Assembly (NCBI GenBank): GCA_030747485.1
Contig: JASLKP010000001.1
Coordinates: forward strand, 137,971 to 201,970
Direction of reading: 5' to 3'
DNA length: 64,000 nucleotides
Source: Candidatus Thalassarchaeaceae archaeon
Lineage (GTDB): Archaea; Thermoplasmatota; Poseidoniia; Poseidoniales; Thalassarchaeaceae
Part shown: in pieces, positions 5,199-8,324 of the stretch
Numbering within the stretch: the first letter of the stretch is position 1
Layout of the letters: the number at the start of each line of letters is the position of its first letter
Position numbers and translations under genes: made by a program
Notes under the pieces: generated by a model
What the model was told of the DNA's origin: nothing
Database searches by the model: none
Seen by the model: the letters and a program-made list of their open reading frames with translations, nothing else

Positions 5199-8100
5199 CT
5201 AATCACGGCCACGTAATTGAACCACGAGAGTAAGCAAAAATGCTCCAGCCAACAATGCTATGATTCCGAGTGCGACCCTCATGACTTGAGATCCTGAGAG
5301 TCCACTTGACTTGCCAGATGAATCAGAGGTTTGATCATCGGAATCAACTGGTGCGCAGGCCATCTCAGTGCAAGCCCATACACCATCGTCACAGACGCAA
5401 TCGTTGCAATCATCTCCTGCGGGTCGTGTCTCGCCCTCAACGCATGTAGGTTCAGGTTCCGGTTCCGGCTCGGGCTCCGGTTCAGGCTCCGGTTCAGGCT
5501 CCGGTTCAGGCTCCGGTTCAGGCTCCGGTTCAGGCTCCGGTTCAGGCTCGGGCTCAGGTTCTGGAGTTGTTGTGTTTGTCTCATTTTCAGCCCAGATGAC
5601 TGTGAAGGCATGTTGTAGCACTGAATTGGGGCAATCGTGCCAGTTATCTTCCTCACCACAGTTCAGGATGCTCGCCTCAAAGGTAAGGGTGATTTCCGTA
5701 CCGTTTGGAATTGTTTCATTCAAGACAAGTTGCCAAGAATGCGGATAAGAGGTTTCTGCGAAGATGAGATAGTACCACTCGACCATGCCAGAGAAACCGC
5801 TGACAAGGGGGTTGTCGGCGGTCGCATTAACACCAGGATAGTGGATATCCTTGTCACAGATGTTGACAAGGTCTAGACTGATGGAGAATGTCGAATTGAT
5901 TGTGAAGTTGTCTACAGTGAGGCAATGACCATCTGGCTCATGAGTATCATTGACAGTAAAGGCGTCAGCTTGTAGGAAGATTGCAACACTGTGTGGATTC
6001 AACGTGAATCGGTGTTGTGAATCCATGGGAACTCCATTCAATGCATCATAGGCAACCCAATCCAAATCAAGGTCAAAGTCGGTAGTCGTCGTTCCACGGT
6101 TCATCGCGATGACGGCTTCGTCTGATTCGGTTTCCATTGACCAAACGATTGTATCAGTACTGTTGTGCAATGATGCATATGTTCCTCGGCGGAGAGGTTC
6201 TGAATTCATCCTCAATTGACCGATGGCACTGATGTTTTCCATCAGGGAAATCTCACGTTCGTTGAGGTCAGATGTACTACGAAGCACATGGCGATTGTCT
6301 GGATCTGCGCCACCGTATTCACCGTATTCATCACCCTGATAGATGGCGGGGGCGCCGGGAGTTGTCAGTAGCCAAGTATAGGCCTGTAACGCTGACAAAT
6401 AGGGATCATCGTTTCCAGGTTGACCAGGCAATCCATCCTCCACCCATTGATTCCATTCATCTGCAGTACCCGAATCTGCTCGACTTGTGAATCGAGGAAC
6501 ATCATGGCTTCCCACAAAGGGAACCATTGTCGCACCATCCACATACTGATCTTGGCTTCGGGCCGTCCAATAATCCAGATGCTGATAGTCCATGTTACCT
6601 GAGGTGAACACGTTGTCCACAACAGCATGATAGAGTACGAAATCAGCTTGTCCATCCAGTGCATTTGGACCGATGTAGTTGTTGATGGTTTCATACTCAT
6701 CAGCATTTTCCTCTAATGTGTGGCCCGACCATCCCATCGCTGTCTCGCCCTTCAGATAATAGTCGGTTCCAGCGGTCTCAAATCGTTCATTGATTCGAAC
6801 TGCAAGGTTGGTAATGGCTAGATCCTCGACGTGCTTGACTGCATCGATTCGTCCACCATCTAGGTCGAACGTTTCCATCCACCAAATGACATCGGCGATG
6901 AATTGCTCGCTAGCATTTCTAACGCGCCAATTGACGTCAGGCATGTACGGTCGGAACATGCAATCGAGACGATGCTCGGTCCAGCCACAATTTTCCTCCC
7001 CACACAGACATCCTTCGTTGAACCAATCTGGATTGTCTGTGAAGTATGGATGGTCTTCGTGAACATGATTGACAACGAAATCACCCATGATTCTAATCCC
7101 TACATTGTGAGCTGTATCAATCAGTTGATGCAACTCTTCTGCAGTCCCTAAGCGTGGATCGACTGCTCGTGCCTCAACGGGCCAGTAACCGTGGTATGAC
7201 GAGACTTCATGCTGATTATCTGCAGCTAAACCGGTTCCATCTGCTGCTGTATTGAATGGTGTCAACCATAATGCATTGACACCAAGGTCTGAGAAATATC
7301 CAGACTCAAGCATCTGAATGACACCAGTGAAATCTCCACCCATCCAATCAGCACCTTGTGCTGCAGATGTTGTGAGGGGATCATTGCTGCCATCCCCATT
7401 GACAAATCGATCAGTCATCACCATGTAGATGAGGGCATCATCCCAAACAAATTCCGCTTGTGGTCCAACCCAAAATGGGAGGAGTAAATCATCAGCAACA
7501 TTGCCATCAACATCTTCTCCAGTTATGTGGAGTGTATTCTTTCCTTGAGGTAACGATGAAATATCAAGCATCCAAGTCCATGACTGTTCATCCCATAATC
7601 CAGGAGCCAGGGCTAAGGGGGTTGAATCTGGCCCACCGCCACCGATTCCAGCATGCCAATAAACGGTGAGCATGTTGTTCTCAATGGTGTGTGAAAACAT
7701 TGGCCTACTCGAATCTGCAACGCGAACAATGCTGTTCTCAAAATCATCACAATAGCCACGGTATGGCTCACTAGGATCAAAAATCCAATTATTATCAACA
7801 ATCAATTTGTAACAATACATTCCAGGGCCTAAGTCCATGGATACAGACCAATCTTCAGTCCCTTCTATTTGGGTTAATTGAGTGCGAACATCCCAATCAT
7901 CCCATTCACCAGATACTTCCACTGAAGAAGCAATCCCGGACCATGAAAACGTGGTTTGAGTGGGGCGGGTACGTAACGGAGGAGGTGGTTCAACAATGAT
8001 TGTCCCGGTCATTGAAGGATGGAAATTACACTGGTATTCATAAGTCCCAGCAGTGGTAAATGTGAATGTATATGTGGCCATTTTTGAAAGTGAACCTGAA

Positions 8101-8324
8101 TCAAATGAAACGGGGCCACTGGTGCTGGTTGCTGTATGTTGCATCGATTCTTGATTGGTCCAAGTGATACTGTCACCAACATATATGGTGATTGAATTGG
8201 GTACAAATGTCATCCCTTGAATGTCCACAGAATGATTGTTGGAACGACTCTCTGTTGCATCGACTTCGAAGGTTGGTACCAACGAAATAAGCAGGAGCGC
8301 AATGATTGCTGTTGCCATTCTCAT
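5199..8324 (-). CDS. Secreted, membrane-anchored multidomain alpha-amylase: type-1-copper cupredoxin domain, CBM48/E-set domain, GH13 catalytic domain, (PE)n stalk, Cys-rich module and C-terminal TM helix
   Basis: GH13 conserved regions are present: [27 protein letters not shown] and FVGSHDVPR. The CBM48-like segment reads [16 protein letters not shown]...[18 protein letters not shown]. The cupredoxin ligands are H..C-x2-H-x2-M (QHTATS...[13 protein letters not shown]). The C-terminal hydrophobic helix is [19 protein letters not shown] followed by RGRD. I chose the ATG at 8324 ([12 protein letters not shown]..., a signal peptide) so the start does not overlap the upstream ABC ATPase gene, which ends at 8329. 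Confidence 0.85.
5449..5564 (-). repeat. In-frame tandem repeat (about 12-nt unit ggctccggttca) encoding a run of roughly 19 Pro-Glu dipeptides
   Basis: Near-perfect ggYtcMgg periodicity is visible directly on the plus strand. It translates on the minus strand as [12 protein letters not shown]...EPT inside the amylase ORF. Confidence 0.9.

Follow-up and report, generated by a model that had tools for sequence, protein, structure and literature searches.

The window analysed here, a stretch of 64,000 nucleotides (nt) from Candidatus Thalassarchaeaceae archaeon, belongs to a 1.41-Mb metagenome-assembled genome (72% complete) of Marine Group II (MGII), subgroup MGIIb. It carries a gene for a secreted GH13 alpha-amylase in which a predicted type-1 copper cupredoxin is placed between the signal peptide and a CBM48-type module (Table 1). 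The gene, whose ATG lies at 8324, 5 nt past the stop of the upstream ABC ATPase gene, is part of an alpha-glucan locus comprising secreted GH57, GH77, transaldolase, GT35 phosphorylase, GH13, three-gene ABC importer and HAD hydrolase genes. We found no redox gene among the neighbours in this locus, and no mau-like gene.

Table 1. Features of the amylase and of related or neighbouring proteins. Positions refer to the window unless a contig is named; aa, amino acids; ORF, open reading frame; AF2, AlphaFold2; pLDDT, predicted local distance difference test.
Feature	Position	Strand	Basis or remark
Whole gene: 1,041-aa secreted cupredoxin-CBM48-GH13 alpha-amylase, C-terminally anchored	5199-8324	-	Stop codon 5199-5201
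Signal peptide, residues 1-23	8256-8324	-	Sequence reading; putative cleavage site
Predicted type-1 copper cupredoxin, residues 31-112, amicyanin-type C-x2-H-x2-M ligand loop	7989-8234	-	Pfam, PDB sequence search, AF2, Foldseek
His31	8232-8234	-	Three residues ahead of the first beta-strand
Ligand His63 (amicyanin His53 in alignment)	8136-8138	-	Invariant in 21/21 fused amylases
Ligand loop Cys99-Asn-Phe-His102-Pro-Ser-Met105 (amicyanin Cys92/His95/Met98)	8010-8030	-	Cys, His and Met invariant in 21/21
Pro-rich linker with P-[VIL]-R-x-R motif	7959-7988	-	Motif at which cupredoxin-less orthologues resume directly past the signal peptide
CBM48-type glycogen/starch-binding module, residues 123-203	7716-7958	-	Pfam AMPK1_CBM and Foldseek
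Beta-sandwich spacer domain, residues 204-300	7425-7715	-	AF2 pLDDT >90; no family assigned
GH13 catalytic (beta/alpha)8 domain, residues 302-671, regions I-IV, D494/E527/D608	6312-7421	-	Pfam and sequence reading
Pro-Glu repeat stalk	5421-5588	-	Sequence reading
Six-cysteine pacifastin-like module	5337-5447	-	Pfam PF05375 (Pacifastin_I), E 1.4e-8, 34.8 bits (cut-off 27.9)
C-terminal transmembrane anchor and short basic tail	5202-5285	-	Sequence reading
Sugar ABC importer, ATPase	8329-9102	-	257 aa
Sugar ABC importer, solute-binding protein and permease	10357-12960	-	867-aa ORF (SBP_bac_1/8 + BPD_transp_1)
Giant adhesin	13840-27735		4,631-aa ORF
Cupredoxin-like domain of the giant adhesin	17866-18126	-	Three ligands replaced
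Halocyanin-like cupredoxin near cox genes, L001	Contig 22, 8224-8502		Own genome (G000)
Same region (halocyanin-like cupredoxin and cox genes), L064	Contig 22, 5821-6018
PGF-CTERM Ca-repeat family members: L040 (G079:C23), L046, L047, L048, L042, L045			N-terminal intact cupredoxin
Giant Ca-repeat carriers: L051, L053, L055, L063			About 30 further matches

The GH13 part of the protein is intact: the Alpha-amylase domain (PF00128) matches residues 302-671 with an E value of 4e-40, conserved regions I-IV are present, and the catalytic residues D494, E527 (in KGETAMGW) and D608 (in FVGSHDVPR) are in place. It is the sole catalytic domain found in the Pfam scan of the amylase, which detected no further metal or redox domain. 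The CBM48 module scores 54.6 bits against AMPK1_CBM (cut-off 26.8, E 1.3e-14) and Foldseek matches its fold to the AMPK beta glycogen-binding domain (1z0m/4yee) with template modelling (TM) scores of 0.83-0.88 and a root-mean-square deviation (rmsd) of 1.3-1.9 Å. A hydrophobic N-terminus similar to the predicted signal peptide is present in the orthologues. The protein contains 17 cysteines, of which 16 are pairable and one is the putative copper ligand Cys99. The six-cysteine module, located between the Pro-Glu stalk and the membrane anchor, recurs in the orthologues P0004, P0012, P0046 and P0060. An assembly or gene-call artefact can be ruled out as the origin of the fusion, since the same in-frame arrangement was assembled independently in no fewer than 16 genomes and is also seen on several metagenome contigs.

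A sequence-only reading of this DNA had proposed an intact blue-copper domain at 7992-8234 (residues 31-111, HSVDIQ...TIIV), fused to the N-terminus of a secreted GH13 amylase and carrying a His ... Cys-x2-His-x2-Met site of the amicyanin/plastocyanin type. Profile and structure comparisons bear this out. Residues 32-112 match Copper-bind (PF00127) with an E value of 1.4e-10 and 41.9 bits (cut-off 21.2), the domain reaches 46.6 bits when the genome is searched with the PF00127 profile, and Cupredoxin_1 (PF13473) scores 31.8 bits (cut-off 27). Amicyanins are the top hits of a sequence search of the PDB (1sfd/1aac, E 1e-15 to 3e-14); in the alignment, His63, Cys99, His102 and Met105 fall on amicyanin His53, Cys92, His95 and Met98, with an identical short C-x2-H-x2-M loop. 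In a first multi-domain AF2 model, in which residues 24-300 were folded together, the CBM48 module and the beta-sandwich had pLDDT >90, whereas the cupredoxin was poorly modelled (pLDDT 52-68), because only seven alignment rows spanned it. Modelled alone with 19 cupredoxin-bearing rows, the domain is predicted with a pLDDT of 95.8 and a predicted TM score of 0.86, and takes up the Greek-key beta-sandwich of cupredoxins. The first twelve Foldseek hits of this model in the PDB are all amicyanins (TM 0.81-0.84, rmsd 1.6-3.0 Å, identity 34-36%), followed by Thermus scotoductus NirK (6hbe), a Nitrosopumilus cupredoxin (5fc9) and an enzyme of Nitrosopumilus maritimus (9cck). The model superposes at 1.6-1.8 Å on structures of Cu(II) amicyanin, and the ligands coincide in the sequence alignment, which implies that the four ligand side chains cluster in space. 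Taken together, these comparisons identify the domain, at the level of sequence and model, as a type-1 copper cupredoxin of the amicyanin/plastocyanin type with a complete ligand set.

The four ligands are retained in all 21 fused amylases, which span about 50-77% identity, together with the motifs GDS[IV]TWTN, HT[AV]TS and GP.SF[DN]S. The earlier impression of a functional-looking metal site thus gains weight: because the ligand set is both complete and conserved, the copper site very probably works, and we infer that it is occupied by copper. The ratio of non-synonymous to synonymous substitution rates (dN/dS) of the cupredoxin is about 0.04 in the genus of the window and about 0.27 in a second clade, rough Nei-Gojobori values obtained with saturated dS, and is of the same order as in the CBM48 module and the spacer; this pattern points to purifying selection on the cupredoxin wherever it is present. 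An additional histidine, His31, lies in the context xxH[SA]V[DNS]I, and most copies of the module, though not every one, retain it, in amylases and in proteins of the PGF type alike; it has no counterpart in amicyanin and could be an extra metal contact or a processing signal.

A survey of 401 Poseidoniales genomes with residues 1-363 of the amylase as query (E<=1e-5) showed that the cupredoxin-GH13 architecture does recur in relatives, in a patchy way. The query as a whole matched in 347 genomes; many of these matches are weak and need not be orthologues. Matches that extended over the cupredoxin part were limited to about 16 genomes, all from the Thalassarchaeaceae (family f1) and distributed over three genera, with seven genomes in the genus of the window, five in genus g10 and three (plus one fragment) in genus g3; among the matches listed, none came from the other large Poseidoniales family. 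Even within the genus of the window, seven species have the cupredoxin versus at least 11 that lack it. The cupredoxin-less orthologues of this genus are 70-77% identical, and in such proteins the signal peptide is directly followed by the P-[VI]-R-x-R start of CBM48. In one of them (genome G049) the amylase gene lies about 9.6 kb from a giant adhesin gene, as it does in the window (genome G000). On account of this equal spacing, the idea that fused and unfused forms are paralogues was rejected for this genus, and the two can be regarded as orthologues at one locus. Since orthologues from the same genus and the same locus do without it, the cupredoxin appears dispensable for the amylase.

In a maximum-likelihood tree built on the CBM48-GH13 portion common to both forms (40 rows, with four omitted as short or ambiguous), the distribution of the cupredoxin requires six changes, four of them forced by well-supported branches, and the domain is present in both deep branches of the Thalassarchaeaceae clade. 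The tree of the cupredoxin domain itself is poorly resolved; the non-amylase copies cluster (80/91), and the approximately unbiased test (p 0.48) does not reject placing all amylase cupredoxins in one clade. As the junction between cupredoxin and CBM48 is identical in 21/21 fused sequences and a single cupredoxin clade is compatible with the data, the simplest history suggested by the sequences is one early insertion followed by repeated clean losses. Recombination between alleles is a possible source of the patchiness, and a few independent gains of the domain are conceivable.

The same module, 55-70% identical and with intact ligands, is also present on unrelated surface proteins of Thalassarchaeaceae and related marine metagenomes. 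One group consists of proteins of 500-680 aa with a signal peptide, the cupredoxin at the N-terminus, Ig-like repeats, thrombospondin-type-3 calcium repeats and a PGF-CTERM anchor. The cupredoxin of one member, L040, is 70% identical to that of the amylase, and the amylase of its host genome lacks the module. In another member, L045, a halocyanin-like cupredoxin is present in addition, close to the C-terminus. A complementary distribution, with the module on either the amylase or the PGF-type protein, was hinted at in one genus and was discarded, genus g3 having both. Asp-rich calcium-repeat giants of about 2,660-2,700 aa, found in six genera of the family, each have a single cupredoxin in their interior, about 350 residues in from the N-terminus, and its ligands are intact. 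Further arrangements include a 404-aa fragment with the module at its C-terminus, P0123, in which it is inserted inside a YHYH domain (PF14240), and P0125/P0126, in which a right-handed beta-helix region flanks it on one side and a cyclophilin peptidyl-prolyl isomerase on the other. Proteins of the P0123 and P0125/P0126 types carry GC[TM]DxxAxNYxxxAxxDDGSCxY repeats that are common to many amylase orthologues. Close stand-alone homologues of the domain are limited to seven short proteins, mostly fragmentary. Finally, a search over all proteins recovered 33,966 representatives (E<=1e-3), with tandem multi-cupredoxin proteins at most of the top ranks, so that the wide subfamily says little about function. 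One copper module is shared by several unrelated surface proteins, which makes a general copper or redox role at the surface probable and a specific part in starch digestion improbable. The amylase orthologues themselves vary on their C-terminal side, where we found a Reprolysin-like metallopeptidase (P0057), an esterase/lipase (P0053) and WD40-type beta-propellers (P0087, P0101 and P0106). Because of these varied additions, the anchored amylase appears to be a scaffold and a hot spot for module accretion.

Two other proteins encoded in the same genome help to place the module. The sole other PF00127 protein is a 182-aa PGF-CTERM halocyanin-like cupredoxin on contig 22, with a C-x2-H-x4-M-type loop and 37% identity to the amylase domain. 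Its gene adjoins a COX3-like ORF, with a COX2 gene about 2 kb off, and from this neighbourhood it is likely to be the respiratory carrier of the archaeon. The giant adhesin, about 10 kb from the amylase gene in the window, contains a cupredoxin-like domain that is also 37% identical to that of the amylase (E 3e-10). Of the ligands it has retained the first His, with other residues in place of Cys, the second His and Met (GNFSYYSSSATTVTGTVEV); an equivalent match is present in the adhesin orthologues, of about 4,600 aa, of many relatives. This copy suggests that ligands decay in this organism where copper is not needed. In the sugar importer upstream of the amylase gene, the solute-binding protein and permease are fused in a single ORF and the ATPase lacks the C-terminal regulatory domain.

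What the cupredoxin does on an amylase has to be judged against several alternatives. The sequence-only reading had suggested coupling to an oxidative step, with the domain supplying or removing electrons for an LPMO-like (lytic polysaccharide monooxygenase) copper oxidase or a sugar dehydrogenase acting on alpha-glucans beside the amylase. An intact type-1 site on a polysaccharide hydrolase invites this idea, and tethered cupredoxins known to feed a catalytic domain (NirK 6hbe and N. maritimus 9cck) are among the structural neighbours of the module. However, LPMO_10 was found in none of 101 Thalassarchaeaceae genomes, cupredoxin-bearing ones among them, nor in the genome of the window, and this 72%-complete genome has no match to Cu-oxidase_3 (multicopper oxidase), GSDH (PQQ sugar dehydrogenase) or GMC_oxred_N, in searches that cover families with a Pfam model and leave aside AA13-like and other model-less families. 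The locus holds only the glycoside hydrolase, transaldolase, GT35, importer and HAD genes listed above, orthologues at the same locus lack the domain, the module is also found on proteins that are not carbohydrate-active enzymes, and the GH13 domain has no redox centre to take electrons. For these reasons, we see no support for a link between the amylase and a polysaccharide oxidase and regard it as very improbable. Only slightly more credible is a tethered respiratory carrier, in which the domain would be a further halocyanin-like protein shuttling between the membrane complexes and the haem-copper oxidase. The archaeon does respire with a haem-copper oxidase and a small cupredoxin, and the amylase is predicted to be membrane-anchored, but the dedicated PGF-CTERM cupredoxin encoded near the oxidase genes shares only 37% identity with the amylase domain, the latter sits at the end far from the anchor, and most species of the order lack it.

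The fallback of the sequence-only reading, a cupredoxin fold co-opted as a binding or structural module, here a spacer or adhesive beta-sandwich in which copper would at most stabilise the fold, deserves more attention. It would agree with the dispensability of the domain in sister species, with the occurrence of the module on adhesin-like calcium-repeat proteins and with the neighbouring adhesin, whose cupredoxin-like domain, devoid of three of the ligands, indicates that the fold is used structurally in this organism. What speaks against it is that the four ligands do not vary among the intact copies examined, as opposed to the decay seen in the adhesin copy; moreover, Met38, Met61, Phe101 and Pro103 around the exposed His would match the docking patch of amicyanin. 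We consider a purely structural role possible but unlikely. The least probable alternative, in our opinion hardly tenable, is that the module oxidises thiols to disulfides in cysteine-rich surface proteins, whether in cis or in trans. The 16 non-ligand cysteines of the amylase and the many paired cysteines of other carriers would favour it, but cupredoxin-less orthologues retain the same cysteines, no thioredoxin-fold partner is fused or adjacent here, and type-1 blue copper sites react poorly with O2.

We therefore favour, with a probability of roughly 0.55, a copper-dependent one-electron role at the cell surface that is independent of hydrolysis. The cupredoxin would form the membrane-distal end of a surface alpha-amylase whose C-terminal helix ties it to the membrane, and would be one of the copies of a mobile module, specific to the lineage, which Thalassarchaeaceae have attached to many surface proteins. 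The amylase most likely acquired it once, by insertion between the signal peptide and CBM48 in the ancestor of the three genera, and subsequently lost it several times. Hydrolysis of starch or glycogen by the GH13 domain should not need a cupredoxin, and the amylase would act as a membrane-tethered carrier for a module with a one-electron task at the surface, such as exchanging electrons with a partner that is either soluble or at the surface, a task of use in certain niches and not required elsewhere. A redox function separate from catalysis is thus what we infer for this domain. Several points weigh against this proposal. No redox partner of the module was identified; the module is separated from the membrane anchor by roughly 900 residues and the Pro-Glu stalk, an awkward position for feeding a respiratory chain; its repeated loss could equally signal a marginal function; and in a genome that is 72% complete, novel oxidases without a Pfam model would be missed. 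More speculatively, and with considerable doubt, the blue-copper centres on many Thalassarchaeaceae surface proteins might together form an undescribed cytochrome-free extracellular redox layer in which the amylase is one scaffold. Possible activities of such a layer are the oxidation of Fe(II) or Cu(I), the processing of photochemical superoxide or the uptake of electrons from a surface oxidoreductase.

We found no description of the cupredoxin-GH13 architecture in the literature and nothing relevant on cupredoxins joined to glycoside hydrolases, and the term 'cupredoxin' does not occur in the MGII genome papers recovered by our literature search; an automated JGI annotation labels one orthologue 'glycosidase/plastocyanin'. 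In the amylase, known domains are combined in a new way, and the combination is confined to a few genera. What is known of the surface biochemistry of Marine Group II archaea, which rank with the most abundant uncultured microbes of the surface ocean, comes from genomes alone. If hydrolases and adhesin-like proteins of these organisms do carry a copper redox centre, copper would be invested in extracellular one-electron chemistry that lies outside current metabolic reconstructions. The natural GH13-cupredoxin chimera and its close cupredoxin-free orthologues also offer a ready comparison for the effect of a redox module on a hydrolase. Should the domain be only a decorated spacer, it would represent one more case of domain shuffling in archaeal surface proteins.

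Among known systems, the closest to the module are the amicyanins of Paracoccus denitrificans and Paracoccus versutus (PDB 1aac, 1id2 and 1mda), which share its fold, its length, the His/Cys/His/Met set and the short C-x2-H-x2-M loop (34-36% identity, E 1e-15, TM 0.82-0.84). Whereas the amylase domain is joined covalently to a glycoside hydrolase, amicyanin occurs free in the periplasm; its gene lies in the mau cluster, and it receives electrons from methylamine dehydrogenase. A search for the heavy chain of this dehydrogenase (PF06433) gave no match in the 72%-complete genome of the window, nor did it in the control set. In T. scotoductus NirK (6hbe) and the N. maritimus protein (9cck), a single type-1 cupredoxin is likewise fused to a larger extracytoplasmic enzyme, but the partner domain is a copper redox enzyme that accepts the electron, whereas GH13 has no redox centre. 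A precedent for fusion to a non-redox-looking extracytoplasmic domain is provided by EfeO-type cupredoxin-peptidase_M75 proteins, which involve another cupredoxin subfamily and another partner, and whose proposed link to iron uptake has no counterpart in the amylase. Halocyanin/plastocyanin genes of Marine Group II archaea are reported to be highly transcribed (PMC9723583). These halocyanin/plastocyanin-like respiratory carriers share superfamily, organism group and surface anchoring with the amylase cupredoxin, but the carrier in the genome of the window is the product of a separate gene, with the small size, low identity and longer ligand loop described above. As for the catalytic domain, the solved structures nearest to it are those of GH13 alpha-amylases from Anoxybacillus and Geobacillus (5a2a and 4e2o) and of cyclodextrin glucanotransferases (E 1e-37 to 1e-28), with the conserved regions and the catalytic triad in common. 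None of these carries a cupredoxin, and the archaeal amylase is further set apart by its CBM48 module, Pro-Glu stalk, Cys-rich module and membrane anchor.

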